From an uncultured Myxococcales bacterium (lineage in GTDB: Bacteria; Myxococcota_A; Polyangia; Palsa-1104; JAEUJZ01): a DNA stretch of 17,937 nt. The stretch covers positions 1 to 17,937 of the forward strand of contig CAYWPR010000110.1 in NCBI GenBank assembly GCA_964460115.1. The letters run 5' to 3'. The notes beneath the pieces are model-generated. The model was given only the letters and a program-made list of their open reading frames with translations, was not told where the DNA came from and made no database searches. The position numbers and the translations under genes were made by a program. Shown here one piece after another: positions 2,513-14,598 of the stretch (position 1 is its first letter; every line of letters begins with the position of its first letter).

Positions 2513-3373
2513 ATGAAAGCCTCGACAAGGTTCGCGCCAGCTGACATGCAGAAAACAGGCAGTTGCACCTATGTTTTTTGCGTCACCAAGGGGCAAGCGC
2601 AAGCACCGGCAGGCAGTGGTTTTGCGCCCGACAGCCCGCTGGAATATGTGGTTGCGGAAGATTTGGCAGCGCTGACCTGCCGCGTTTCGCTTGACGAGTG
2701 GACGGGAAAAGACGCCGAAGCGCGGCTTGGCGATTTGCAATGGCTGGGACCACGGGCCGTGCAGCACGAGGCGGTCATTGAAGCAGCGCTGGCGCTGGCG
2801 CCGGTTTTGCCGCTGCGCTTTGGCTGTTTGTTTTCGTCTGCCGCCGCCGTGCAGAACTGGCTTTTGATCTGGCGTGATCAAATTGCCGATTTTCTCAACG
2901 ATATCGCCGACCGCGAAGAGTGGTCGCTAAAAGGCTTTTTGGATGTGCCGCGAGCGGAAGCGGCGCTTTTGGCCAAGGATCCGCGCTTTTCTGCGCTACC
3001 GGCTTCGCCAGGTGCGCGGTATCTGCGCGAACAAAAGCTGCGTCAGGAAATTGCTCGCTCGGTGCGCGTATGGGCCCGCGAGCACGAGCAAGCGGCGCTC
3101 GACGCGCTTTCGGCGCTGGTTCAAAAATCGCGTTCTTTGCGCGCCATCAGCGGCGAACTTTCTGGTCGCAGCGAAGAAGCCGTGTTTCATCGGGCGCTGC
3201 TTGTGCCGCGCCCCTGCCACGCCGAACTTTTGCAGCACATTGAGCCGCTGCAAAAAAACCTGGCAGGGCAGGGACTGCTGCTGGAACTTTCCGGACCCTG
3301 GCCGCCGTACAATTTCTGTCCGACGCTTGCGCCTTCTGCACCTGCGCAAACGCTCGGCAAAAGTGACGCCTAA
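2513..3373 (+). CDS. gvpF: Gas vesicle protein GvpL/GvpF family (paralog 1)
   Basis: N-terminus TYVFCVT...LEYVVAEDLAALTCRVSLDEW, central VLPLRFGCLF and C-terminal LSGPWPPYNF match GvpL/GvpF family hallmarks (YxYGV, LAAVVS-like, LPMRFG, GPWPPYSF). An alternative start at ATG 2546 (MQKTGSCTYVF) is equally plausible. Confidence 0.8.
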   Translation: MKASTRFAPADMQKTGSCTYVFCVTKGQAQAPAGSGFAPDSPLEYVVAEDLAALTCRVSLDEWTGKDAEARLGDLQWLGPRAVQHEAVIEAALALAPVLPLRFGCLFSSAAAVQNWLLIWRDQIADFLNDIADREEWSLKGFLDVPRAEAALLAKDPRFSALPASPGARYLREQKLRQEIARSVRVWAREHEQAALDALSALVQKSRSLRAISGELSGRSEEAVFHRALLVPRPCHAELLQHIEPLQKNLAGQGLLLELSGPWPPYNFCPTLAPSAPAQTLGKSDA

Positions 3374-3391: not shown

Positions 3392-4153
3392 ATGACAAAG
3401 CCCGCTTTTGACCACTGGCTGCTTTGCTGTGTGACTTCCGCTGCGGTCTGCGCCGATGGCGCCGAACTGGCCGATTTGCCGCCCGGGGCTTTTGGCGTAC
3501 GCTGCCGCGGTTTGGCGGCCGGGCCCTTGTTTGGCGTTGCGGCACCGCTTTGTGGCGCTCGGCAAATTGCGCAGCCAACGGCAGAAGATTTGCTCGCCTA
3601 CAGCCGAGTCGTAGACCTTGTGCATGCGCGACATACTGCCGTTCCCATCCGTTACGGCAGTACGTTTGGCAGCGATGCGGCAATTCGTACCTATCTTCAT
3701 GAAAACGCCGCACATTACGAGCGTCTGCTTCAGCAGTTTGTCGACCGAGTCGAAGTCGCCGTACGCACCGCATTTTCTGCCGAGATCGCGCAATCGCTGC
3801 CGTCCCTCGAAAATTCCGCTCCGCGAATTTCCGCCGGGAGCACAGGCACTGCCTATTTGCGTCGCCTGCAAGCGCAGCAGGAAAAAATGCGTGCTACAGC
3901 CGATGCGGCAGCCCGTCAAGGCGAACAGATTTACGCCGCCCTGGCACCGGGCGGATGCCCGCATCGAGTAGAAACGCGCACCGACAACCCCGGCGGAGTC
4001 ATTCGTGACATCGCCGTTAGCTTTTTGCTGAAACGCGACGCCGTGTCGGAATTTCGCCGCCGCGTGGAAGAACTGCAGCAAAAAGCGCAGCGCCCGCTGC
4101 GCTTTTTGGGACCGTTTGCGCCCTATAGCTTCGCCGAGCTTGCACCGCCCTAA
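3392..4153 (+). CDS. gvpL: Gas vesicle protein GvpL/GvpF family (paralog 2, more divergent)
   Basis: N-terminal WLLCCVTSA, then LLAYSRVVDL, VPIRYGSTF and C-terminal LGPFAPYSFAEL, the same family architecture as paralog 1. Calling it gvpL rather than gvpF is arbitrary. Confidence 0.75.
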   Translation: MTKPAFDHWLLCCVTSAAVCADGAELADLPPGAFGVRCRGLAAGPLFGVAAPLCGARQIAQPTAEDLLAYSRVVDLVHARHTAVPIRYGSTFGSDAAIRTYLHENAAHYERLLQQFVDRVEVAVRTAFSAEIAQSLPSLENSAPRISAGSTGTAYLRRLQAQQEKMRATADAAARQGEQIYAALAPGGCPHRVETRTDNPGGVIRDIAVSFLLKRDAVSEFRRRVEELQQKAQRPLRFLGPFAPYSFAELAPP

Positions 4154-4271
4154 TTCGAATAACGAAAACAGCCGTTCCTATTTAAAAGACGTTTTATTAT
4201 TGTAATGATAAATTCATTATTTCGCGATCCTGCATCAAGGCTGCGCATCGCGCTTGTTAAAGGCCAAAGCA
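4154..4271. promoter_or_regulatory. AT-rich island inside the gvp cluster, likely internal promoter/operator for gvpF3-arsA-gvpM
   Basis: A sharp GC drop (taattcgaataacgaaaacagccgttcctatttaaaagacgttttattattgtaatgataaattcattattt) in an otherwise >60% GC locus. It contains TTATTATT at 4194-4201 and a 5-bp inverted repeat AATGA-N5-TCATT at 4204-4218. AAAGG lies 9 nt before ATG 4272. Confidence 0.35.
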
Positions 4272-5027
4272 ATGACCCAAAGCAGCGAACAGTCGGGGGG
4301 CGAGTACATTTATGCGCTGGTCCAAAATGACGGACCGAAAACGCTTGGGGCCATCGGCATTGATGGCGCCGAGGTACGGCGAATTGCAGTCGGCGAGCTA
4401 GCGGTCTTCATCAGCCGCATTGCTCGGCCGCGCATTCGTCCCGAGCGGCGAAATTTGGCCGCGCACAACGCCGTGCTGAAACAAGCCATGGCAAGCGGCA
4501 CGGTTTTGCCCGTCGCCTTTGGCATCATCGCGCAGAACGAGGATGCCGTTCGCGTCGCACTTTTGACGAACCAGCTCGATTTGCAGGCGCAGTTTGCCAA
4601 AGTCGCCAATAAGGTCGAGATGGGTTTGCGGGTGCTGTGGGACGTGCCCAATGTTTTTGAGTATTTCGTCGGCGTGCATCCCGAACTGCGCGCCGCCCGC
4701 GATGCCCTTTCCGATCCGCGGCAGCCGCGCCGCGACGAAATGATCGAGCTTGGCCAACTATTCGATCGAATTCTGAATTTCGAGCGCGAGCGCCACTTCG
4801 AGCGCATTAGCGAGCTTTTCGAAAAGCGCGGTTTTGAGACGCTGCGCAATGCCACGCGCAGCGAACGTGAGGTGCTAAACCTCGCCTGCCTGATTTCGCG
4901 CGACGCGCAAACCGATTTCGAAAACGCCGTCACCGCCGCTGCCGCCGATTTCGACAACAACTACACATTTGATTTCAACGGGCCCTGGGCACCGCATCAC
5001 TTCGTGGCGCTGAACCTCAAACTGTAG
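4272..5027 (+). CDS. gvpF: Gas vesicle protein GvpL/GvpF family (paralog 3)
   Basis: Track ORF 4254 uses a TTG start; I prefer ATG 4272 (MTQSSEQSGGEYIYALV). GEYIYALV...GELAVFISRI...VLPVAFGII...NGPWAPHHFV are typical GvpF/L motifs. Confidence 0.8.
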   Translation: MTQSSEQSGGEYIYALVQNDGPKTLGAIGIDGAEVRRIAVGELAVFISRIARPRIRPERRNLAAHNAVLKQAMASGTVLPVAFGIIAQNEDAVRVALLTNQLDLQAQFAKVANKVEMGLRVLWDVPNVFEYFVGVHPELRAARDALSDPRQPRRDEMIELGQLFDRILNFERERHFERISELFEKRGFETLRNATRSEREVLNLACLISRDAQTDFENAVTAAAADFDNNYTFDFNGPWAPHHFVALNLKL

Positions 5028-5036
5028 TGGGGCGGC

Positions 5037-6995
5037 ATGGCGCATTTGCCGGCATTTCTCTTTCGCGAAGATTTGCAGCTCATCCTTTTTTCCGGCAAAG
5101 GCGGAGTCGGCAAGACGACCTGTGCGGTGGCCAGCGCGGTACATATGGCGCTCGGTGCGCCGAAGTTTCGCTTTCTGCTCGTCTCGGTGGATCCGGCGCA
5201 CTCGGTGCGCGATTGCCTCGGCGAAGATACGCCGCCGCAAAATCTCGACGTCATCGAGCTTGATGCACCGGCTTTGCTGCGTGAATTTCTGACCGCGCAC
5301 GAAGCCACCCTGCGCGAGATTGCTCGGCGCAGCACCTTTTTTGACGAGGCAGATATCGCGCATTTTGCTGCGCGTTCGCTTCCCGGAATGGACGAGCTGT
5401 TTGCCTTTTTGCGCATCGCCGAGTGGGTGCAAAAGGGGGCCTATCAAACGATTCTGGTCGATACAGCGCCAGCCGGTCATACCCGTCGGCTGCTTGAAAT
5501 GCCGCAGCTTTTGCGGGCCTGGACAAAAGCGTGTGACGGACTGCTTGCCAAGCATCGCTACATGGTGCAGCAGTTTCGCGGAGCCTATAAGTCCGATGCG
5601 ACCGATCAATTGCTTGTGGATTTGGCGCAATTTGCCAAGCAGGTCGATGCGCTGCTGCGTTCTGCGGCCAGCTTGGTGGTGCCGGTGCTTGTGCCAGAGC
5701 CGCTGTGCTTGGAAATCAGCCTGAACTTTGTGAATGAACTGCGCGCGCAGGGCATAAAGCTCGGGCCGCTTGTCATAAATCGGCTGCGCAACGCGGAAGG
5801 CTGTGCAAGCTGCGCGCTTGTGGCCCTGGCGCAAAAGCAAGCCTTGGCCGCGCGCCAAACTCAGCTTGCCGACGATGGCGGCGGCTGGGGCCTGCCGCTT
5901 TTGGCAAAAGAAGTGCGCGGTCTGGAACATTTGCGAAATTTTTGGCAGCAGGGCGAACCATATTCTTTCATCGCGCCGCCCGTAAGTACCAAGCTGCCGA
6001 ACTCGATCTCGAGCCCGCGTATCGATATCGAAATCGAAGTGCAAAATCCCGCGGCGCTGCCGCCCCAAACTCAGCGCGTGTTGCTTTTTGCCGGCAAGGG
6101 CGGCGTTGGCAAAACCACATTGGCCTGCGCCACGGCGCTGTTTCTGTCCGCGACCGCGCAGCGCTCGGTCCTGCTAATTTCGACCGACCCGGCGCATTCG
6201 CTGTCCGCGGCGCTGAACGTAGCCATCAGCGCAACCGACACAAGGCTGCCGACCTGGCCGCGGCTCACGGTTGTAGCGCCCGAGCCACAAGCAAAATGGC
6301 AAGCTTGGCGCGACGAATATGCCGACGAGATATCGGCTTTTTTTCGCAAACGCCTGGGCCACGTAGACTTGGCGTTTGATCGGCAGGCCCTGGAGCAACT
6401 GATGGATCTGACACCGCCCGGGCTCGACGAAATCGTCTCGCTGACTCGCGTTGGCGAATTGCTGGCGGAAAATAAGTACGAGCACATCGTGCTGGATACC
6501 GCGCCCACCGGCCACCTGCTGCGGCTTTTAGAGCTGCCGGCCGTGCTCGACGATTGGCTAAAGGGCATTTTCGCCATTCTATTGAAGCAGCAACCGGCGC
6601 TGCGCCTGCCGCGGCTTAGCGACCGTTTGATTGGGTTGTCCAAACAACTCAAGCGGCTGCGCAAAGTCCTTTGGGACGCGCAGCAAAGCAGCTTGTATGC
6701 GGTCAGCATCGCGACTTGTCTGGCGCATGAAGAGACGCTGGACCTTTTGCACGCTTGTCGCCGCTTGTCGCTGCATGTAGGCGGCGTATTTGTCAACCAG
6801 TGCACGCCCGTCGCGAATTGCAAACTGTGCACGGCGCTTTTTCAGCGCGAAACCCAGGTCAACACGGCGCTACAGCGCGAAGTGGCAAACGTGCCGCTGA
6901 CCTGTATCACAGCGGGCACGCCGCCCCTCGGCCTGGCGGCGCTTTTTGCGCTGGGGCAAAAACTATATACATTGGGAGACTCGCTTGGCCGCTGA
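5037..6995 (+). CDS. ArsA/Get3-family anion-transporting-type ATPase, tandem duplicated (two ArsA halves), embedded in gvp operon
   Basis: Both halves carry the deviant Walker A GKGGVGKTT (FSGKGGVGKTT at aa ~19 and FAGKGGVGKTT at aa ~355). Both carry the ArsA A-loop (VSVDPAHSV; ISTDPAHSL) and the ArsA/Get3-specific DTAP(A/T)GH..RLLE signature (DTAPAGHTRRLLEMP; DTAPTGHLLRLLELP). ATG 5037 lies 10 nt after the gvpF3 stop with GGGG upstream. Confidence 0.85.
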   Translation: MAHLPAFLFREDLQLILFSGKGGVGKTTCAVASAVHMALGAPKFRFLLVSVDPAHSVRDCLGEDTPPQNLDVIELDAPALLREFLTAHEATLREIARRSTFFDEADIAHFAARSLPGMDELFAFLRIAEWVQKGAYQTILVDTAPAGHTRRLLEMPQLLRAWTKACDGLLAKHRYMVQQFRGAYKSDATDQLLVDLAQFAKQVDALLRSAASLVVPVLVPEPLCLEISLNFVNELRAQGIKLGPLVINRLRNAEGCASCALVALAQKQALAARQTQLADDGGGWGLPLLAKEVRGLEHLRNFWQQGEPYSFIAPPVSTKLPNSISSPRIDIEIEVQNPAALPPQTQRVLLFAGKGGVGKTTLACATALFLSATAQRSVLLISTDPAHSLSAALNVAISATDTRLPTWPRLTVVAPEPQAKWQAWRDEYADEISAFFRKRLGHVDLAFDRQALEQLMDLTPPGLDEIVSLTRVGELLAENKYEHIVLDTAPTGHLLRLLELPAVLDDWLKGIFAILLKQQPALRLPRLSDRLIGLSKQLKRLRKVLWDAQQSSLYAVSIATCLAHEETLDLLHACRRLSLHVGGVFVNQCTPVANCKLCTALFQRETQVNTALQREVANVPLTCITAGTPPLGLAALFALGQKLYTLGDSLGR

Positions 6996-7086
6996 CGTAA
7001 CTGATCTCAGCTTGACCGATGATGGAAAAAGTCATGCCGTTTCGAATACGACGCGCCACGAAGCGACTCGAGACGAAGAAGAACGC

Positions 7087-7308
7087 ATGTCTTTGTGCGA
7101 ACTGCTCGATCGAGTTTTAAACAAAGGCGTGGTGGTTCGCGGCGAAGTGGTCATTACCGTCGCCGATATCGAGCTACTATATTTGGGTTTGGAACTTATT
7201 CTGTGTGCCACCGAGACGGCGCGCCAGGCCGGTGTGCGCCTGCCAAGCGATATGAACGCAGCGCGGTTTTTGCCCAATCCGCAGGTCGTCAAGGTTCCTT
7301 CGCGCTAA
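7087..7308 (+). CDS. gvpM: Small gas vesicle structural-family protein (GvpA/GvpJ/GvpM family; GvpM-like)
   Basis: MSLCELLDRVLNKGVVVRGEVVITVADIELLYLGLELILCATETARQ matches the GvpA-family core (SL.E.LDR.LDKGVV...V..IELL....R..IAS.ET). VVITVADIELL resembles the GvpM/J type rather than GvpA DAWVRVSLVGIELL. The track ORF starts at TTG 6946 inside arsA; I prefer ATG 7087. An in-frame TTG near 7010 is a possible longer alternative. Confidence 0.7.
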   Translation: MSLCELLDRVLNKGVVVRGEVVITVADIELLYLGLELILCATETARQAGVRLPSDMNAARFLPNPQVVKVPSR

Positions 7309-7740: not shown

Positions 7741-8271
7741 CTATAGCAGTTTGCCAAGCGGCCCGAGATCCAGATTGAGGTCTTCTTCACGCAGGCCGAA
7801 GGCTTCGCGCAGGCGGTGTAGCTCTTCGGCTTGGCGCATTAGAGTCAGGCCGAGTTGTTCGATTTGTTCATCGCTTAAAGTTCCCGATTCGACGCGGCGC
7901 AGGGCCTGCTTTTCCAGCAAATCGTGCAGCAGTTTGACGAGCGTTAGCACCAATTGCCCCAGTCCATTTTTGACGCTGTCGGGATCGATATTGATGCGGC
8001 GCGACGGTCCTAATGCAGGCTCAGCCGGAGCGGTTTTTGCTGCCGCTGTTTTCGTCGACTTTTTTGCCGCTTTGGCCGAATTTGTCGGCTTTTTCGTCGA
8101 TTTCGCCGGTTTCGTCGTCAGCTTCGGCATCGACTTCGTCGGCTTCGTCGATTTCATCGTCGGCTTCGTCGATTTCATCGTCGGCTTCGTCGTCGATTTC
8201 GTCATGAGGCAGTTCTTCGTCATCCTCAACTGCCGCTTCTTCGTCCCCAGATGCGGCTTGCTCCAACTCAT
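7741..8271 (-). CDS. gvpK: Gas vesicle protein GvpK with Lys/Thr-rich repetitive N-terminal extension (start uncertain: ATG at 8271, 8223, 8205, 8178, 8157 or 8130)
   Basis: The C-terminal 86 aa are RINIDPDSVKNGLGQLVLTLVKLLHDLLEKQALRRVESGTLSDEQIEQLGLTLMRQAEELHRLREAFGLREEDLNLDLGPLGKLL, the conserved GvpK pattern. The only in-frame ATGs lie upstream of the gvpG stop (8021), so any ATG start overlaps gvpG in another frame. The maximal ORF adds 90 aa containing TKPTMKS repeats. Confidence 0.7.
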   Translation of the reverse strand: MSWSKPHLGTKKRQLRMTKNCLMTKSTTKPTMKSTKPTMKSTKPTKSMPKLTTKPAKSTKKPTNSAKAAKKSTKTAAAKTAPAEPALGPSRRINIDPDSVKNGLGQLVLTLVKLLHDLLEKQALRRVESGTLSDEQIEQLGLTLMRQAEELHRLREAFGLREEDLNLDLGPLGKLL

Positions 8272-8479
8272 CCAGCCGGTCTAGCAGCAGCTTTTCTTCA
8301 TGATCAAACTCTGACTCAGAGATCTGATTTGTCTCGAGCAGCATATAAAGTTCGCGCAAACGGTCTTTGATGCGGTCGGATTCTGCTGCTTGTTCTTCCT
8401 CTGCAGCTTGCGCGATTTCTTTCAAAATCCAGACCACGCCTTTGATGGGTGCGGTCAGTAGATCATCAAGAATAAACAT
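8021..8479 (-). CDS. gvpG: Gas vesicle protein GvpG with long poly-acidic repeat C-terminal tail
   Basis: MFILDDLLTAPIKGVVWILKEIAQAAEEEQAAESDRIKDRLRELYMLLETNQISESEFDHEEKLLLDRLDEL matches the GvpG family consensus (MF..DDLL..P..G..WI...I...AE...L.EL...LE.G.I.E.E....E..LL.RL). It is followed by a DEIDEAD-type acidic repeat tail (aa ~80-152) ending at the TGA at 8021-8023. Confidence 0.8.
   Translation of the reverse strand: MFILDDLLTAPIKGVVWILKEIAQAAEEEQAAESDRIKDRLRELYMLLETNQISESEFDHEEKLLLDRLDELEQAASGDEEAAVEDDEELPHDEIDDEADDEIDEADDEIDEADEVDAEADDETGEIDEKADKFGQSGKKVDENSGSKNRSG
8086..8210. repeat. Tandem 21-bp repeat (gtcggcttcgtcgatttcatc, about 3 clean copies at 8138-8203 plus degenerate copies 8086-8137)
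   Basis: Direct repeats read in the sequence; the unit length is a multiple of 3. On the minus strand the repeat encodes DEIDEAD in the gvpG frame and TKPTMKS in the gvpK frame. It also generates the plus-strand shadow ORFs 7751..8284 and 8013..8207. Confidence 0.85.
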
Positions 8480-8693: not shown

Positions 8694-10568
8694 TTACTCG
8701 CCCTGATTCGTGCGGGCGGTGCCTTCCACGATGCGGAACTCGACGCGGCGGTTTTTGGCGCGGCCGGCCGCGGTCGTATTGGGTGCGACCGGTTGATCCG
8801 GGCCAAAGCCCTGCGATTCTAGACGATCTGCTTCGATGCTGTGCGCGATGAGCCAAGTCATAACGCTGCGCGCTCGGCGCTGCGACAGATCGATATTGTA
8901 GATGTGCACACCCTGGCTGTCCGTATGTCCTTCGATGCGGACCCGCTTGATGTTGGGCGTAGCAATGAGCGCGTCGGCCACTGCCTGCAGGACCGGGTAG
9001 CTTTGCGCCAGAATGATGTCCTTATCGAGCGCAAAGAACACCGGCTTGAGGATCACCAGCTTGCCGCCATGAATCTGAACCAGACTTGGGCAGCCGTTCT
9101 TCCGCGGATTGGGATGCGGCGCACCTGGGGTATCCGGACAAGCGTCTACCTTATCGGGGACGGTGTCTTTGTCGCGGTCGGGCAGCGGGCAGCCAATGCG
9201 CTCCGGATCGGGGTGCAGTCCGGAAGGCTCAAAGACGCACTTATCAATGGTGTCTACGTAGCCATCCTTGTCACTGTCGAGAGCCGGACAGCCCAAGCGG
9301 TTCGGATCCGGGGTCGGGCCCATATGCTCATCCGGACACAGGTCCAGCTTGTCGGGTACGCCATCGCGATCGCGATCCGACTCGGGCGGCTGCGGACAGC
9401 CACGGCGCAGCGGATCGGGCGTCGGGCCCATATGCTCGTCGGGGCAGACGTCATCTTGATCGGGCACGCCGTCGCGATCGCGGTCGGCCACTGGCGGACA
9501 GCCGTGGGTGCTGGGAACACCAGTGCGAATGCCGCGTACATCCGGACAAGCATCTTCGCCGTCAGGAATGCCGTCGCCATCGCGATCCGTTTCCTTGGCG
9601 CGCACCGGAGCATAGGCCACGCGCAGCAGCCAGCGGAAGTCAGGATTGCCCGCCTGACGGACAAAGCCAGTGCCAAAGGCCATACCGACCTGAACAAGCT
9701 TGGCGATGTTGTACTGACCGCCGACCAAAGCCGATACGCTGGTGCCAAAGCGCGAAAACGCATCGCGGCCCAGCACCTGGCCAGAGATCATTAATTCCGG
9801 GCCGACCGAGAAGCGTTTCTCTTGATCGAAGTAGGAAGCGGCCAGCGAGAACTGAATTTCCGAACCTACGCCACCCGGGTCGCCAGCATCCGCTGGAACC
9901 ATGGCCGTCGCTTCGGGACGGTAATAGAACCCAAAAGTTCCCGACCACAGCAGCTTGCGCCACACACCGCCCGCGACGAGTCGTGGCAGTATACGCACGC
10001 CCGTGTCGCTGTACGAAGGGGGCACGGCGTTGGGATCACCGGCGCGCAGCGGAATCCATAGATTTAAGCCGAAGCTGATGGACAAAATGTCCTGAAACGG
10101 CTGATTGTAAAGGCGGACCATGGCGCCTAGACGCGGATCGCCAACCGATGCGCCGCTCGAGACCGAGGGCTCGCCCTGGCTCAGAAAGACCACCGGAAGC
10201 GAGGCGGTCAATAGGACACGGTCTAAAAACGACCCGGCCAAATCCAGGTGGCCGATGAACTGATGCTCAATCAGCACGCGTCTTTGAGAAAAAGACCCGT
10301 CGGAGTTTAACGATCCGGCAACAAGCGGCTGGTGCGCATAATCTAGAGTCAGACCAGCGGCAAAATATCGCACCGAGGAGTACCACGGGTGGTCGACCGC
10401 GAAAGACCATTCACCGGCGGCCGTCGGTTCATAGCGGTTAAGTTGGAACCCCTGCGTGGGCGCTTGCTGGGCAAAAGCTGTGCCGCCCACAGACATCGCA
10501 CCCAAAAACAGGGAGAGAATGGAACATCGGAACGAGGATCGCAAAGTCACCCTCCAGTACAGAATCAA
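8694..10568 (-). CDS. OmpA-family outer-membrane protein with thrombospondin type-3 (TSP3) Ca-binding repeats and C-terminal OmpA peptidoglycan-binding domain
   Basis: Signal peptide MILYWRVTLRSSFRCSILSLFLGAMSVGGTAFAQQ, then an N-terminal beta-rich region. Multiple D.DRDG.PD..D.CPD TSP3 repeats follow (ETDRDGDGIPDGEDACPD, ADRDRDGVPDQDDVCPDEHMGPTPDP, SDRDRDGVPDKLDLCPDEHMGPTPDP, DSDKDGYVDTIDKC, DRDKDTVPDKVDACPD). The C-terminus has the OmpA-like motifs IEGHTDSQG...NIDLSQRRARSV...RRVEF. Confidence 0.8.
   Translation of the reverse strand: MILYWRVTLRSSFRCSILSLFLGAMSVGGTAFAQQAPTQGFQLNRYEPTAAGEWSFAVDHPWYSSVRYFAAGLTLDYAHQPLVAGSLNSDGSFSQRRVLIEHQFIGHLDLAGSFLDRVLLTASLPVVFLSQGEPSVSSGASVGDPRLGAMVRLYNQPFQDILSISFGLNLWIPLRAGDPNAVPPSYSDTGVRILPRLVAGGVWRKLLWSGTFGFYYRPEATAMVPADAGDPGGVGSEIQFSLAASYFDQEKRFSVGPELMISGQVLGRDAFSRFGTSVSALVGGQYNIAKLVQVGMAFGTGFVRQAGNPDFRWLLRVAYAPVRAKETDRDGDGIPDGEDACPDVRGIRTGVPSTHGCPPVADRDRDGVPDQDDVCPDEHMGPTPDPLRRGCPQPPESDRDRDGVPDKLDLCPDEHMGPTPDPNRLGCPALDSDKDGYVDTIDKCVFEPSGLHPDPERIGCPLPDRDKDTVPDKVDACPDTPGAPHPNPRKNGCPSLVQIHGGKLVILKPVFFALDKDIILAQSYPVLQAVADALIATPNIKRVRIEGHTDSQGVHIYNIDLSQRRARSVMTWLIAHSIEADRLESQGFGPDQPVAPNTTAAGRAKNRRVEFRIVEGTARTNQGE
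9100..9590. repeat. TSP3-repeat-encoding DNA, including a ~107-bp near-identical direct duplication (gggcccatatgctc... at ~9317 and ~9424)
   Basis: Repeated nucleotide blocks visible directly in the sequence. They account for the long spurious plus-strand ORFs 8841..9794 and 9086..10078. Confidence 0.6.
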
Positions 10569-10629
10569 TCCGGCGTCTGCGCCAAACTGCTCAGGCGCCG
10601 GCTTCGTTTTGGTTCTTTTTCTTTGCCTG

Positions 10630-10653
10630 ACACCGTGGCCTAGGCCGCGGTGT
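10630..10653. other. Strong GC hairpin/palindrome ACACCG-TGGCCTAGGCCG-CGGTGT 12 nt downstream of the DUF11/MYXO-CTERM gene stop
   Basis: Perfect 6-bp outer stem plus an inner GGCC..GGCC palindrome. On the transcribed (minus) strand it is followed by an A-rich rather than U-rich stretch, so it is not a canonical intrinsic terminator. Possibly a 3-prime stabilising stem-loop or a REP-like element. Confidence 0.35.
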
Positions 10654-10664
10654 TAGGTAAATGG

Positions 10665-12836
10665 TTAGTGGCTTGCTCCCTGACGTCGCCGACGCAACAT
10701 CGTGGCCAGGCCCAGGGCGGCGCCTAAGACCGCCCAAGCGCTAAGACCGCCCAAGTGGGCTGCGGAGCTTAGCGTACATCCAAAGGCTCCACCGGCGACG
10801 CGGGCACCGACGCCGTTGTTGCCAAACTCATCCCACTCGTTGTCGGCGGGATTCGTATCGTAGGCGCCTTCGGAGTAGGTGATGACGTGCACGCCGGTAC
10901 CCGGGCCAGGAGGATCGGTCGGGGTAATCGGCTGGCGTACAACGACATCCACGGCGTGGCTCATCTGGCCGGCAGGAAACTTCGTCGGGAGTGTGCACGA
11001 AATGCGACGGTCGTTCTGCGTGCAGGTCCAGCCGGGTCCCGGCGTCACCTTGTCGATGGTGCCACCTTTGGGAATATCAATCTGTACTTTGATCGGGCCC
11101 TGATCTTCGGTGTTGCCGACGTTGGTGACATCTACACCGTAGGTGGTGGGCTCTTGCGGCGCCGGCTGATCCGGGGTCTTGGTCACGGTCACGCGCAAAT
11201 CACTGCCCTTGTTGGGCACGTAGACGATGGTCGGGGCACCGGGATCGCTGGGATTACCCGACGGGAAGGTGGCAGGACCAAGGCTCGGTTTGCTTTCGGG
11301 AGTGGCAATGGTCGTGCTTTGGTTCGGAATCTGCGGGGGGGCATTGTTGACGGTCTTGAGCTTGTACTTGATGACAACCGGCGGATCGTTAGGCTGAAGG
11401 GAACCACCCGCCGCGCCGCCAGCGCCTCGGCCCAGGCGAACGATCAGCACGGGCTTGTTGGTCATCGGATCGATGGCGATTTCGGCTTGATCGTCGCCGG
11501 CCTTATCGGTCTTAACGCCGTTTTGCTTGCTGTCCGGTCCGCTGATGAAATTTACGGAACCGGGCACAAAGGTCATGCCATCGGGAATGGGGTGACGCAG
11601 AATCAGGCCGGTGGCGCCATCGTCGCCCACATTGACGGTGGTGGACGTAAACTCGACAGTGTCGCCAGGACGCACGCTGGACGGGTCGGCATCTAGGGTG
11701 GTGACGATGACGGGTTTGCGGCTGCGAATCGAGGTAAACATCGCACCGACATAGAAAATGTCGTCCACAGAAGTCGCTGCAATGGTGGCGCCGGTGTCGC
11801 CAGGCATCACCAGGGTCGAGATATCGGCCACATCCAGGTCCACGCCGCTCATGCTGGCTTGGCCGCCGGTAAGCTGCGGCAGATCGCCAGGCAAAGAAAA
11901 CGGCATGCCCAGCAAGGTATGGGAGCCGTTAAAGAAATTCTCACTGCCGTTGATGGCATCGGAGACAATCTTATTGTTGAAAGTGAACTTGTCTTTTAGG
12001 TCCGGATCGCCTTCATAAGCGATGACGCCGAGCTTCGCATCGGGGATGCCGTCAGTGGGAACATTGAATCCACTGATATCCAGGCTGACTGTTTGCGCGG
12101 TATCGACAAAATCCATGCCATCAAACAGCGCCAAGTTGCGTACAAGCTTGCTATTGTCTTGATAGAAGATAACAAGGGACCAGGCGGCAAAAAGCACGTC
12201 AGCTTTCTGATTGAGCAGCGTCGAGTGGGCCACACTGCTAACTCGGTACACACCAGCACCATAACGTTGCACAACGGCCGTCACGTCTGCTGAAGCCTGA
12301 AAGACGTGACCACCCGGACCACCGGGGCTTAGCTTCACATCGTCATCGATCGGACGTACCGAGACCGAAAAGCCTTTGGCACCTGGCCGATCCAGGGTTA
12401 CAGGGTTTTTAGAGTCGAGGTCTTCATCGAGTACACCCGCCCAGTACAAGCGTGCATAGGTGACGCGCTGGCCGGCAGCAAGTTGCAGCATCGCGGCACT
12501 ACGAGCTTGTTGTACTGTTACCGTATCATCCGCTACCGCAGTGCCGTTATCACTGGCATTCCAGAACACATCAGGAGCACTGTCGTTGATCGAGACGGCA
12601 TCCGTTCCACAATTGCCTACCGTCCCTACGATCGGTGCCGGAATGCCAACGCCGGCACGGCAATCTTGTCCCAGGGTATTGCCGATCAGTATCACATCGC
12701 CCTTTTGATCGATCTGAACGCGAATTTTGGGCTTCGCCGATGCGGCAGAGGGCGCCAACGCACAGAAAGCGAATAGCAGCGGCAGGAGCCCTGTGCTTCG
12801 CCAGCGCTGACGGTCAGGGAATGTTCTACGGGACAT
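10665..12836 (-). CDS. Secreted DUF11-repeat surface protein with MYXO-CTERM-like C-terminal sorting tail
   Basis: Signal peptide MSRRTFPDRQRWRSTGLLPLLFAFCALAPSAASA. Two DUF11-like repeats (VTTLDADPSSVRPGDTVEFTSTTVNVGDDGATGLIL...; DLRVTVTKTPDQPAPQEPTTYGVDVTNVGNTEDQGPIKVQIDIPKGG...WTCT...ISCTL). The C-terminus GCTLSSAAHLGGLSAWAVLGAALGLATMLRRRRQGASH has a Gly-Cys, a hydrophobic helix and an Arg cluster, the MYXO-CTERM pattern. A strong Shine-Dalgarno GAGGAGG lies 6 nt upstream of ATG 12836. Confidence 0.7.
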   Translation of the reverse strand: MSRRTFPDRQRWRSTGLLPLLFAFCALAPSAASAKPKIRVQIDQKGDVILIGNTLGQDCRAGVGIPAPIVGTVGNCGTDAVSINDSAPDVFWNASDNGTAVADDTVTVQQARSAAMLQLAAGQRVTYARLYWAGVLDEDLDSKNPVTLDRPGAKGFSVSVRPIDDDVKLSPGGPGGHVFQASADVTAVVQRYGAGVYRVSSVAHSTLLNQKADVLFAAWSLVIFYQDNSKLVRNLALFDGMDFVDTAQTVSLDISGFNVPTDGIPDAKLGVIAYEGDPDLKDKFTFNNKIVSDAINGSENFFNGSHTLLGMPFSLPGDLPQLTGGQASMSGVDLDVADISTLVMPGDTGATIAATSVDDIFYVGAMFTSIRSRKPVIVTTLDADPSSVRPGDTVEFTSTTVNVGDDGATGLILRHPIPDGMTFVPGSVNFISGPDSKQNGVKTDKAGDDQAEIAIDPMTNKPVLIVRLGRGAGGAAGGSLQPNDPPVVIKYKLKTVNNAPPQIPNQSTTIATPESKPSLGPATFPSGNPSDPGAPTIVYVPNKGSDLRVTVTKTPDQPAPQEPTTYGVDVTNVGNTEDQGPIKVQIDIPKGGTIDKVTPGPGWTCTQNDRRISCTLPTKFPAGQMSHAVDVVVRQPITPTDPPGPGTGVHVITYSEGAYDTNPADNEWDEFGNNGVGARVAGGAFGCTLSSAAHLGGLSAWAVLGAALGLATMLRRRRQGASH

Positions 12837-12942
12837 CTAAGCCTCCTCAACTTGGTGGATTGGACCGAGCATATGGACCCTAACTCTACTGCTCCGGATA
12901 CCGATCAGTACTACCAGATTGGTAGGCTCTCGAAACTTCAAC

Positions 12943-12964
12943 GAAAAAGCAAGACTCTTCTTGG
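12943..12964 (-). terminator. Possible small intrinsic terminator after P5C dehydrogenase gene
   Basis: Minus-strand RNA CAAGA-agag-UCUUG followed by CUUUUUCG, beginning 6 nt after the stop at 12970. The stem is short (5 bp), so confidence is low. Confidence 0.3.
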
Positions 12965-12969
12965 TGTGG

Positions 12970-14598
12970 TTAAGCTTCCGACATACAGCCGTAGCGGTAG
13001 TCGGTGGGCGGCAGGAAGTTCTCTTTTATGGTGCGCAGCGACGTCCAGCGCAAAAGATTGAGGGGCGATCCGGCCTTGTCATTGGTTCCGGAAGCGCGTG
13101 CGCCGCCAAAGGGTTGCTGGCCAACCACAGCTCCGGTTGGCTTGTCGTTGATGTAGAAATTGCCAGCGGACTGGCGCAAACGCGAAAGGCTGCGCGAGAT
13201 CGCCTGACGATCGCGTGCGAACACGGCTCCCGTAAGCGCATAGGGCGAAGTGCGATCGACAAGCTCCAGGGCTGTCTCAAAGTCGCGGTACAGGTGCACC
13301 GTGACCACCGGGCCAAAGATCTCTTCGCGGAGTAGTTTGTGCTGCGGATCGTCCGCCAGAATCAAAGTCGGGCGAATGAAGTAACCCTCGCTATCATTTC
13401 CGGTTCCACCGCTTATAAGGCGCGCGCCCTGGCCATCGGCCAAGCGAATGTAGGAGTTTATCGATTGGTAGGCCCGGCGGTCGATGACCGCCCCCATGAA
13501 GTTGCGAAAGTCACAGACATCGCCAACCGCAAGCGTGTTGATTTCGGCACCCAGGCGAGAAAGCAGTCGGCGCCCCATGGTTTCCGGCAGGTAAACCCGC
13601 GAAGCCGCCGAGCACTTTTGTCCCTGATATTCATAACCGCCGCGCAAAATGGCGGTCGCTAGGGAATCCTCATCCGCGCTTTCGTGCGCCAAAATGAAGT
13701 CTTTGCCGCCGGTTTCGCCAACGATGCGGGGATAGGTACGATACCGGCCCATATTGCCGGCCACCGTTTTCCAGATGTGGTTAAAAACACTCGTCGAACC
13801 GGTAAAATGGACTCCTGCCAAATCCGGATGGCACAGGGCGACATCGCCGAGTTCGGCTGCCGGTCCGTTTACCAGATTAATCACGCCCGGCGGCAGTCCG
13901 GCTTCGAGCAGCAATTCCTGAATCAGATAAGCGCTCAGAATGGCGGTGGGAGCTGGCTTCCAAACCACGACATTGCCCATCAATGCCGGTGCCGTTGCCA
14001 AGTTGCCAGCGATGCTCGTGAAGTTAAAGGGGGTGACGGCAAAGACAAAGCCCTCGAGCGGGCGCAGGTCCACCTGATTCCAGAGATCTTTGGGACTATA
14101 GGGCTGCTCGCTTTCCAGCAAGCGGCGCAGGTAGTAGACATTCCAGCGCCAGAAATCGATAAGCTCGCAGGCGGCATCGATCTCGGCCTGCAGACAAGTC
14201 TTAGACTGGCCCAGCATGGTTGCGGCGTTTAAACGGGCGCGCCACGGCCCAGCCAGCAAATTGGCCGCTCGCAAAAAGACGGCAGCGCGTTGTTCCCAGG
14301 GCAGAGCGGCCCAGCCGGCGGCTGCATGCAAGGCCGCGGTAATGGCTTGGTTCATCTCGGCGGCGCCCCCTTGATGGGCTTGGCCAAGCACATGGCGATG
14401 GCGGTGTGGGGCGGAAAGCGGCAACAGATTGCCGCTGTGCACGCGCGCTTCGCCTATATAAAGCGGAACCTCGGCCGTCTGCGACTGCATGCTGCTTAAT
14501 GCGGCCTTTAATGCGGCGCGTTCCGTGCTGCTCGGCAAGTAGCTGTAGACGGGTTCGTTTTGCGGTTCGGAATAGCGGGCGATGGTGGCAAACGTCAT
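12970..14598 (-). CDS. pruA: L-glutamate gamma-semialdehyde (delta-1-pyrroline-5-carboxylate) dehydrogenase, aldehyde dehydrogenase superfamily
   Basis: ALDH motifs FTGSTSVF, IVGETGGKDFI (catalytic Glu region) and EYQGQKCSAASR (catalytic Cys in the P5CDH-type GQKCSA context). The track ORF extends to 14670; I prefer the ATG at 14596-14598 (MTFATIARY), which avoids overlapping exbD. The symbol could equally be rocA. Confidence 0.8.
   Translation of the reverse strand: MTFATIARYSEPQNEPVYSYLPSSTERAALKAALSSMQSQTAEVPLYIGEARVHSGNLLPLSAPHRHRHVLGQAHQGGAAEMNQAITAALHAAAGWAALPWEQRAAVFLRAANLLAGPWRARLNAATMLGQSKTCLQAEIDAACELIDFWRWNVYYLRRLLESEQPYSPKDLWNQVDLRPLEGFVFAVTPFNFTSIAGNLATAPALMGNVVVWKPAPTAILSAYLIQELLLEAGLPPGVINLVNGPAAELGDVALCHPDLAGVHFTGSTSVFNHIWKTVAGNMGRYRTYPRIVGETGGKDFILAHESADEDSLATAILRGGYEYQGQKCSAASRVYLPETMGRRLLSRLGAEINTLAVGDVCDFRNFMGAVIDRRAYQSINSYIRLADGQGARLISGGTGNDSEGYFIRPTLILADDPQHKLLREEIFGPVVTVHLYRDFETALELVDRTSPYALTGAVFARDRQAISRSLSRLRQSAGNFYINDKPTGAVVGQQPFGGARASGTNDKAGSPLNLLRWTSLRTIKENFLPPTDYRYGCMSEA

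Follow-up and report, generated by a model that had tools for sequence, protein, structure and literature searches.

A predicted Get3-like tandem ATPase as a conserved, facultative companion of bacterial gas-vesicle genes

Bacteria have to keep the very hydrophobic GvpA-family proteins soluble and feed them into the growing gas vesicle. This requirement also restricts what gas vesicles can do as genetically encoded reporters for ultrasound, as their expression in foreign hosts is proteotoxic. In a stretch of 17,937 nucleotides (nt) from an uncultured Myxococcales bacterium (contig CAYWPR010000110.1 of assembly GCA_964460115.1; hereafter the window), a gene for a 652-residue ATPase of the ArsA/Get3 family is embedded among gas-vesicle (gvp) genes. 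The initial annotation of this locus offered two ideas for the enzyme, that it chaperones the hydrophobic GvpA/J/M proteins or that it substitutes for GvpN. The analysis described here indicates that the gene is a genuine, conserved member of gas-vesicle clusters. We consider it probable, at roughly 0.55, that its product is a conserved but facultative accessory component of these clusters that would act, by analogy with Get3, as an ATP-driven shield for hydrophobic Gvp proteins. As a Get3-type ATPase that recurs in the gvp clusters of at least 14 phyla, it represents a concrete candidate for the GvpA-handling step.

The description of the gene product as a tandem ArsA/Get3 ATPase was borne out by profile searches. 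The Pfam ArsA_ATPase domain (PF02374) was found twice, with 307.5 bits against a cut-off of 24.3 (E = 1.3e-91), and the NCBIfam model TIGR00345 (GET3/ArsA/TRC40) scored 304.6 bits against a cut-off of 135. With both curated cut-offs exceeded and the deviant Walker A, switch I and switch II regions all present, the protein belongs to this superfamily. Its nucleotide-binding motifs are intact in both halves: each contains the deviant Walker A motif GKGGVGKTT and the DTAPxGH..RLL signature, just as initially read, while the TDPAHS loop that had been ascribed to both halves is found as such only in the C half, the N half having VDPAHS instead. Conservation of these and other residues (Table 1) was judged from a family alignment of 37 sequences sharing 43–56% identity. 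Long antisense open reading frames (ORFs) within the gene had no Pfam match. An AlphaFold2 model of the protein (predicted local distance difference test score, pLDDT, 84.4; predicted template-modelling score, pTM, 0.86) resembles the closed tandem ArsA structure 9nbw with a template-modelling score (TMt) of 0.78, and each half matches Get3/TRC40 structures with TMt of 0.75–0.81, including the Get3–client complexes, on which the halves superpose with TMt of 0.77–0.79. The best solved relative by sequence is ArsA1 of Chlamydomonas reinhardtii (148.8 bits; PDB 5ZME/5ZMF), which is likewise a tandem pseudo-dimer with PGxDE in both halves and has been discussed in the literature as a factor for tail-anchored proteins. 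It differs from the window ATPase in being eukaryotic and chloroplast-related, in showing no CxxC in the aligned region and in its low identity of about 24%.

Within this family, the sequence features identify the protein as a Get3-like, rather than pump-like, two-domain member of the ArsA/Get3/TRC40 group. It shares with Get3/TRC40 of yeast and mammals and with archaeal Get3 the deviant Walker A, the switch I and II regions, the PGxDE motif, the position of the CxxC motif and the helices that follow switch II. Putative zinc motifs of the CxxC type are present in both halves (CASC and CKLC), at the same domain position as in archaeal single-domain Get3-like proteins, and are absent from pump-type proteins. 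The segment between switch II and the next strand comprises 81 residues in the N half and 74 in the C half of the gvp-linked proteins, compared to 67 and 55 residues, respectively, in the pump ArsA and 88 in archaeal single-domain Get3-like proteins, so that the ATPase exceeds the pump by 14–19 residues. In the AlphaFold2 model these segments are predicted to form pairs of long helices (residues 155–181 and 188–208 in the N half, 491–517 and 525–546 in the C half), and 46–50% of their residues are hydrophobic, versus 40–46% in the pump, in a model that resembles closed ArsA. Judged by segment length and secondary structure only, they agree with the TRC40-type insert that, together with CxxC, marks the Get3-like class of Farkas et al. 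(2019; PMC6593721); cyanobacterial members of our survey set lack CxxC, which is the same exception that was noted by those authors. The arsenical pump ArsA (Escherichia coli R773; PDB 1F48; TIGR04291) has the same tandem fold and nucleotide-binding motifs (TMt 0.66–0.78), but contains three metalloid-binding cysteines, neither CxxC nor PGxDE, and shorter segments after switch II, and it lies in ars operons with arsD and arsB. Differences from Get3/TRC40 are also apparent: the two halves are covalently fused instead of forming a homodimer, the methionine content is low, the presumed target is a lipid-free protein shell and not a membrane, and there is no Get1/2/4/5 pathway; no Get1/2 or Get4/5–Sgt2 partners were found among the annotated neighbours of three close relatives, and none would be expected in bacteria. 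A neighbour-joining domain tree suggested separate N-half and C-half clades as well as a separate pump clade. The clade of the window is robust in this tree (bootstrap 92–100/100), whereas the split between the pump plus Chloroflexia sequences and the rest reached only 59/100 and monophyly of the halves at most 7/100. In view of these deep bootstraps we make no claim on a single ancient duplication or on deep placement, and the Get3-like classification is based on the motifs, the inserts and the context, not on the tree.

A survey of one genome per species yielded 80 loci (L numbers below refer to surveyed loci), and the species-level representatives retrieved are 25–45% identical to the window ATPase. 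Gvp-family genes lie within 10 kb in 53 of these 80 loci, and in 47 at least two Gvp families are represented. The taxa represented include Verrucomicrobiota, Acidobacteriota, Gemmatimonadota, Gamma- and 'Delta'-proteobacteria, Myxococcota (Labilithrix), Chloroflexota, Methylomirabilota, Cyanobacteriota, Bacteroidota, Chlorobiota, Planctomycetota, Bacillota, Spirochaetota and Nitrospinota; relatives lie inside gvp clusters in at least 14 phyla. The close relatives L001–L003 (44–56% identity) all reside in gvp clusters that also contain a 72-residue gvpA, a gvpN (AAA_5) and a Cdc48-like AAA+ gene. Three gene orders recur (A, GvpA/J/M; F, GvpF/L; G, GvpG; K, GvpK; N, GvpN; C, Cdc48-like). The first, that of the window's clade, reads C F F A N F G (tandem ArsA) A K A, with the window, L001 and L088 showing a convergent variant of it. 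The second, without gvpN, is A A F (tandem ArsA) F A K and occurs in Acidobacteriota, Gemmatimonadota, Labilithrix and others. The third, A N A (single-domain ArsA) C F F G F A F K, has an ArsA homologue of about 310 residues. In every cluster that shares the window's gene order, a small Gas_vesicle-family gene directly follows the ATPase. Hsp20-like genes are present in 28 of the surveyed loci and J-domains in 11, so the ATPase keeps chaperone-type company.

Several of these loci deserve a description of their own. In a member of Chlorobiaceae (L044, 9466–14120), an Hsp20-like gene (172 residues, borderline Pfam score) is followed by a single-domain ArsA (312 residues), a Cdc48-like double AAA+ protein (726 residues) and a GvpF/L protein fused to a DnaJ J-domain (339 residues); our literature search turned up no publication that deals with Cdc48-like or J-domain proteins as parts of gvp clusters in bacteria. 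In L017 (4961–14000), a compact cluster from Terriglobia, the genes are arranged as A A HK RR F ArsA F A K, where HK is a histidine kinase and RR a response regulator; gvpN, gvpG and cdc48 were not detected in it. A PAS histidine kinase and a response regulator are found within gvp clusters of two gene orders (L003, 3731–5679; L017, 6197–8331), which suggests dedicated two-component control of the vesicle genes. In L005, L134 and L137, the GvpJ/M-like and GvpK frames are fused into single proteins of 180–200 residues. In the cyanobacterial loci L026, L027 and L034, a tandem ArsA homologue has no detectable gvp neighbours, and a Cdc48-like gene is adjacent to it on the opposite strand.

A GvpK-centred metagenome scan covered clusters near to that of the window (GvpK 56–78% identical). 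Among the loci in which this junction was visible, the ATPase gene was found between gvpG and the GvpJ/M-like gene in 30 metagenome loci, as well as in L088, and it is present in about two thirds of near-identical clusters, that is, facultative in this cluster type. In the reading that we prefer, the two halves would behave like a Get3 dimer joined covalently, and a single zinc ion, held by both CxxC motifs at the pseudo-dimer interface, might clamp them together. ATP binding would close the halves, whereupon the long helices that follow switch II would build a hydrophobic groove, as proposed by analogy with Get3. This groove could shield an exposed hydrophobic segment of GvpG or of newly made shell proteins of the GvpA family (GvpA/J/M). 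Hydrolysis of the ATP would open the enzyme and pass the client to the GvpF/L–G–K assembly machinery, so that the ATPase would raise the yield or robustness of vesicle assembly without being essential to it. The Get3 hallmarks, the catalytic residues kept in both halves, the tight operon packing and the chaperone-type neighbours all speak in favour of such a role, and the chaperone idea, drawn from the Get3 analogy, is plausible in the context of the cluster.

Several observations weigh against this proposal. The ATPase is missing from the very same slot in 16 loci, or about one third, with the remaining gene order unchanged. The downstream GvpJ/M-like protein did not differ in length or sequence when 39 clusters with the ATPase were compared with 16 without it, and an all-against-all comparison of gene content in 22 clusters with and 13 without the ATPase revealed no co-varying gene beyond the effects of contig coverage. 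To our knowledge, the gene is absent from the model clusters of Halobacterium, Bacillus megaterium and Serratia, which make vesicles, and therefore the ATPase cannot be essential. Gas vesicles have no lipid membrane, and hence the classical role in tail-anchor insertion is not directly transferable. The helical subdomains are poor in methionine, with three such residues in one half and one in the other. Finally, overall sequence distances put the protein about as far from the pump-type domains as from the archaeal Get3-like ones, with saturation in both cases, and the deep branches are weakly supported.

The lack of any client feature in the GvpJ/M-like and gene-content comparisons counts in favour of an enzyme that energises another step of biogenesis with no hydrophobic shielding at all, such as remodelling or recycling of the GvpF/L–G–K machinery, vesicle nucleation or MinD/ParA-like positioning. 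The ATPase usually adjoins gvpF/L or gvpG, it shares the SIMIBI class with MinD and ParA, and Castillo & Saier proposed no more than that it energises a biogenic step (PMC2963123). Yet the matches to the positioning ATPases are weak and far below threshold (ParA partition, 53.9 bits against a cut-off of 180; MinD, 28.7 bits against 212.9), placing the protein outside these families, and the CxxC motifs, the inserts after switch II, PGxDE and the Hsp20-like, Cdc48-like and J-domain neighbours favour protein handling over positioning; we regard this explanation as rather unlikely. An improbable one, in our estimate, is that the protein is a housekeeping Get3-like chaperone, serving tail-anchored proteins or acting as a general or redox-switched holdase, that merely happens to lie beside gvp genes. 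The CxxC motif of yeast Get3 is known as a redox switch, and those of the window ATPase could serve likewise; cyanobacterial and Myxococcaceae relatives without gvp neighbours do exist (L026, L027, L031, L034, L038 and L046), and Farkas et al. suggested a general chaperone role for bacterial Get3 homologues (PMC6593721). Such a bystander, however, would hardly recur inside the gvp clusters of 14 or more phyla, with three conserved gene orders and tight packing against gvp genes or overlap with them, nor would it be expected to be gained and lost at one fixed slot between gvpG and gvpJ/M.

The other idea of the initial annotation, that the ATPase replaces GvpN as the ATPase of the cluster, has in its favour that neither tblastn nor Pfam scans of the large ORFs detected a gvpN-like sequence in the 17.9-kb window, as had been stated at the outset, that 27 of the 47 genome loci representing two or more Gvp families show no gvpN within the stretch that was fetched, and that the ArsA homologue of L017 is the only NTPase there besides the sensor kinase. 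In the window's own clade, however, the co-occurrence of both genes speaks against substitution; it was seen in 11 genome loci (L001, L002, L003, L005, L006, L008–L011, L035 and L043) and in 12 of the 15 ATPase-positive metagenome loci that span 8 kb or more. Those sister clusters that lack the ArsA gene have gvpN, too. The protein has no match to AAA_5 (PF07728), the domain of GvpN, and the two proteins differ in fold family and mechanism (SIMIBI versus AAA+). Moreover, upstream of its cluster the window offers no more than 2.5 kb, and the gvpA–gvpN genes of L001 and L002 are several kb away and at variable positions. Replacement of GvpN therefore appears very improbable, being conceivable only for the second gene order, which lacks gvpN, as in L017. 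Least credible of all, close to negligible, is a function in arsenic handling, whether as a pump ATPase stimulated by arsenite or antimonite or as a sensor of arsenic. Automatic annotations do call the relatives 'arsenite-transporting ATPase', the modelled fold matches ArsA structures, and in L003 an ArsP_1-family permease and an ArsR-type helix-turn-helix regulator follow directly after the ArsA-containing gvp cluster on the opposite strand (12928–14497), the only ArsP homologue among the gvp-linked loci. An identity as arsenic-pump ArsA is nevertheless ruled out by score, cysteines, context and the pump-type loci that served as an internal control. The protein scored 162.1 bits against the cut-off of 650 of the pump equivalog TIGR04291. 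When its halves were aligned with a plasmid ArsA encoded beside arsD, Cys115 and Cys423 of the latter (Cys113 and Cys422 in E. coli ArsA, where the third site is Cys172) fell on PGMDE and PGLDE, and the single cysteine near the third metalloid site, Cys166, is Leu in most relatives in the 37-sequence alignment. Pfam scans of the ORFs found no arsB, acr3, arsD, arsC or arsR in the window, in agreement with the initial annotation, which had disfavoured arsenic efflux. The tandem ArsAs of Chloroflexia, the pump-type group of the survey, have neither CxxC nor PGxDE, and homologues of ArsD, ArsP or ArsR are encoded next to them; ArsD homologues flank only this group among the surveyed loci, and the gvp-linked ATPases have no ars neighbours apart from the pair beyond the L003 cluster and an ArsR-like match in L032.

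The gene had been put forward as a candidate for an undescribed component on the grounds that canonical gvp clusters include no ArsA homologue, and this part does not hold. Two-domain ArsA homologues of about 637 residues were reported in gvpFGJKLMNOW-plus-hsp20 clusters of cyanobacteria, Chlorobi/Bacteroidetes, Acidobacteria and one delta-proteobacterium by Castillo & Saier (2010), who noted the absence of ars genes and pump cysteines and proposed that the protein energises a step of biogenesis distinct from that of GvpN (PMC2963123). With its 652 residues, gvp genes on both sides and relatives in the same context, the window ATPase conforms to a two-domain ArsA homologue of about 600–680 residues in a gvp cluster devoid of ars genes. 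It resembles Clusters 4 and 6 of that study (PMC2963123) in having two ArsA domains in about 640 residues, in lying inside clusters of gvpF/L, G, J, K, M (and N), often with Hsp20 in the same cluster, and in the lack of ars genes and arsenite-binding cysteines. That set comprised a handful of genomes, whereas the window's clade comes from uncultured lineages and has a convergent gene arrangement; unlike the present work, it drew no link to Get3-type chaperoning. Conversely, Farkas et al. (2019) drew attention to 'previously unnoticed' Get3 homologues of bacteria that are built in tandem, among them those of Myxococcal species and further Proteobacteria; both domains contain the TRC40 insert, and CxxC is missing only from the cyanobacterial versions. 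The authors predicted a hydrophobic groove and stated the function as unknown, with no mention of gas vesicles (PMC6593721). The window ATPase is like this class in its tandem domains and in having the post-switch-II insert and CxxC in both halves. It is thus a further member of a known gvp-linked family, and not a discovery in itself. We found no paper that joins the gvp-linked ArsA homologues with the tandem Get3 class that has CxxC: pairing 'gas vesicle' with 'Get3' retrieved nothing, searches on gas vesicles with Get3, tail-anchored proteins, arsenical pump or CDC48 gave no experimental study of the gene, and the gas-vesicle papers searched do not mention the ATPase. The Nodularia gene nsp15480, which directly follows gvp genes, has been listed among arsenic genes. 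A 2024 interaction study treated the chaperoning of the hydrophobic GvpA as a required stage of assembly and assigned it tentatively to GvpF and GvpG (PMC11445434).

A wider proposal can be put forward only tentatively, and we hold it to be somewhat doubtful as it stands: the gvp-linked Get3-like ATPases, tandem and single-domain alike, might be dedicated ATP-driven chaperones for the gas-facing GvpA-family shell proteins, working within a conserved proteostasis module of Hsp20-like, Cdc48-like AAA+ and J-domain–GvpF/L proteins in many uncultured phyla. [quoted passage not shown] In gvpN-less clusters such as L017, the ATPase may then be the sole source of energy for assembly.

The features of the ATPase gene and of the gvp genes around it are listed in Table 1.

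Table 1. Features of the tandem ATPase gene and of the neighbouring gas-vesicle genes in the window (aa, amino acids)
Feature	Position (nt)	Strand	Evidence and remarks
GvpL/GvpF-family gene 1 (GvpL-like)	2513..3373	+	Pfam GvpL_GvpF, E 8.9e-48; top NCBIfam match GvpL
GvpL/GvpF-family gene 2 (GvpL-like)	3392..4153	+	Pfam, E 7.6e-33; NCBIfam
GvpL/GvpF-family gene 3 (GvpF-like)	4254..5027	+	Pfam, E 5.1e-58; top NCBIfam match GvpF
Tandem (two-domain) Get3/ArsA-family ATPase gene	5037..6995	+	ORF, ATG start, TGA stop, 652 aa
N-half deviant Walker A GKGGVGKTT, aa 20–28	5094..5120	+	Invariant in the 37-sequence alignment
N-half switch I region SVDPAHS, aa 50–56	5184..5204	+	D52, P53, A54, H55 and S56 invariant in the 37-sequence alignment
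N-half PGMDE motif at the position of pump As-binding Cys113 (Cys115 of the comparison sequence)	5382..5396	+	P116, G117, D119 and E120 invariant
N-half switch II DTAPAGHTRRLL, aa 142–153 (DTAPxGH..RLL), then extended helical insert, aa ~155–208	5460..5495	+	
N-half CxxC (CASC, aa 256–259), Get3-type putative zinc motif	5802..5813	+	C256 and C259 invariant in the family
Inter-domain linker, aa ~311–343	5967..6065	+	Poorly conserved, low confidence; pLDDT <50 at aa 317–327; variable length in the alignment
C-half deviant Walker A GKGGVGKTT, aa 353–361	6093..6119	+	Motif position and 37-sequence alignment
C-half switch I region STDPAHS, aa 382–388	6180..6200	+	Motif position and 37-sequence alignment
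C-half PGLDE motif at the position of pump As-binding Cys422 (Cys423 of the comparison sequence)	6417..6431	+	
C-half switch II DTAPTGHLLRLL, aa 487–498 (DTAPxGH..RLL), then extended hydrophobic helical insert, aa ~491–546	6495..6530	+	
C-half CxxC (CKLC, aa 595–598)	6819..6830	+	C598 invariant; first Cys (C595) in most family members
Small Gas_vesicle-family gene (GvpJ/M-like)	6985..7308	+	Pfam Gas_vesicle, E 5.6e-16; top NCBIfam matches GvpJ/GvpM
GvpA/J-like gene, 141 aa	7289..7714	-	Pfam Gas_vesicle, E 7.5e-17; NCBIfam
GvpK gene	7741..8271	-	Pfam GvpK, E 1.5e-32; domain in C-terminal 85 aa, true start uncertain
GvpG gene	8021..8479	-	Pfam GvpG, E 2e-15; domain in N-terminal ~70 aa, then acidic repeat tail

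The Pfam and NCBIfam assignments confirm the position of the ATPase between the third gvpF/L gene and a GvpA-family gene, and the distance first reported for its ATG, 10 nt after the gvpF stop, is correct: the stop codon occupies 5025–5027, and nine bases (TGGGGCGGC) precede the ATG. Other assemblies call a 251-residue version of this GvpF-like gene from an ATG at 4272. The GvpJ/M-like gene has a called TTG start that overlaps the stop of the ATPase gene and codes for 107 residues as called in L085. The minus-strand GvpA/J-like, gvpK and gvpG genes are convergent with the plus-strand run of GvpL/F, ATPase and GvpJ/M-like genes. When compared with L001, L002 and L003, the window is devoid of the 72-residue gvpA, the gvpN, the Cdc48-like AAA+ and the Hsp20-like genes of these relatives, which implies that the cluster is split, reduced or cut by the contig end; its gvpA and gvpN are probably off the contig. 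An Rfam search of the window gave no match, and scans of it for promoters and terminators performed no better than chance.

The arrangement of the neighbouring genes shows some peculiarities. The 3' ends of the convergent GvpJ/M-like and GvpA/J-like genes overlap by 20 nt (7289–7308); the overlap of their equivalents in L001 is about 90 nt. The gvpG ORF (8479 to 8021) and the gvpK ORF (8271 to 7741) overlap by 250 nt in different frames, with uncertain gene boundaries, and this overlap spans a perfect 21-nt tandem repeat of 2.7 copies (8136–8192). In the GvpG frame this repeat encodes the acidic DEIDEAD tail, in the GvpK frame an N terminus rich in K, T and P. Directly 5' of the first gvpL-like gene lies a DUF218/SanA-like gene (1625–2479), whose score with the SanA model, 136.9 bits, is below the cut-off of 363. 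On the other side, the gvp cluster adjoins genes on the minus strand (8694–12836) for a member of the OmpA family, which contains thrombospondin type 3 repeats, and for a large protein with DUF11/CLIPPER repeats. An OmpA-family protein and a large DUF11/CLIPPER-repeat protein are likewise encoded beside the gvp cluster of L002 (15056–21574), and an OmpA-family gene is located 3' of that of L017 (15033–16670).

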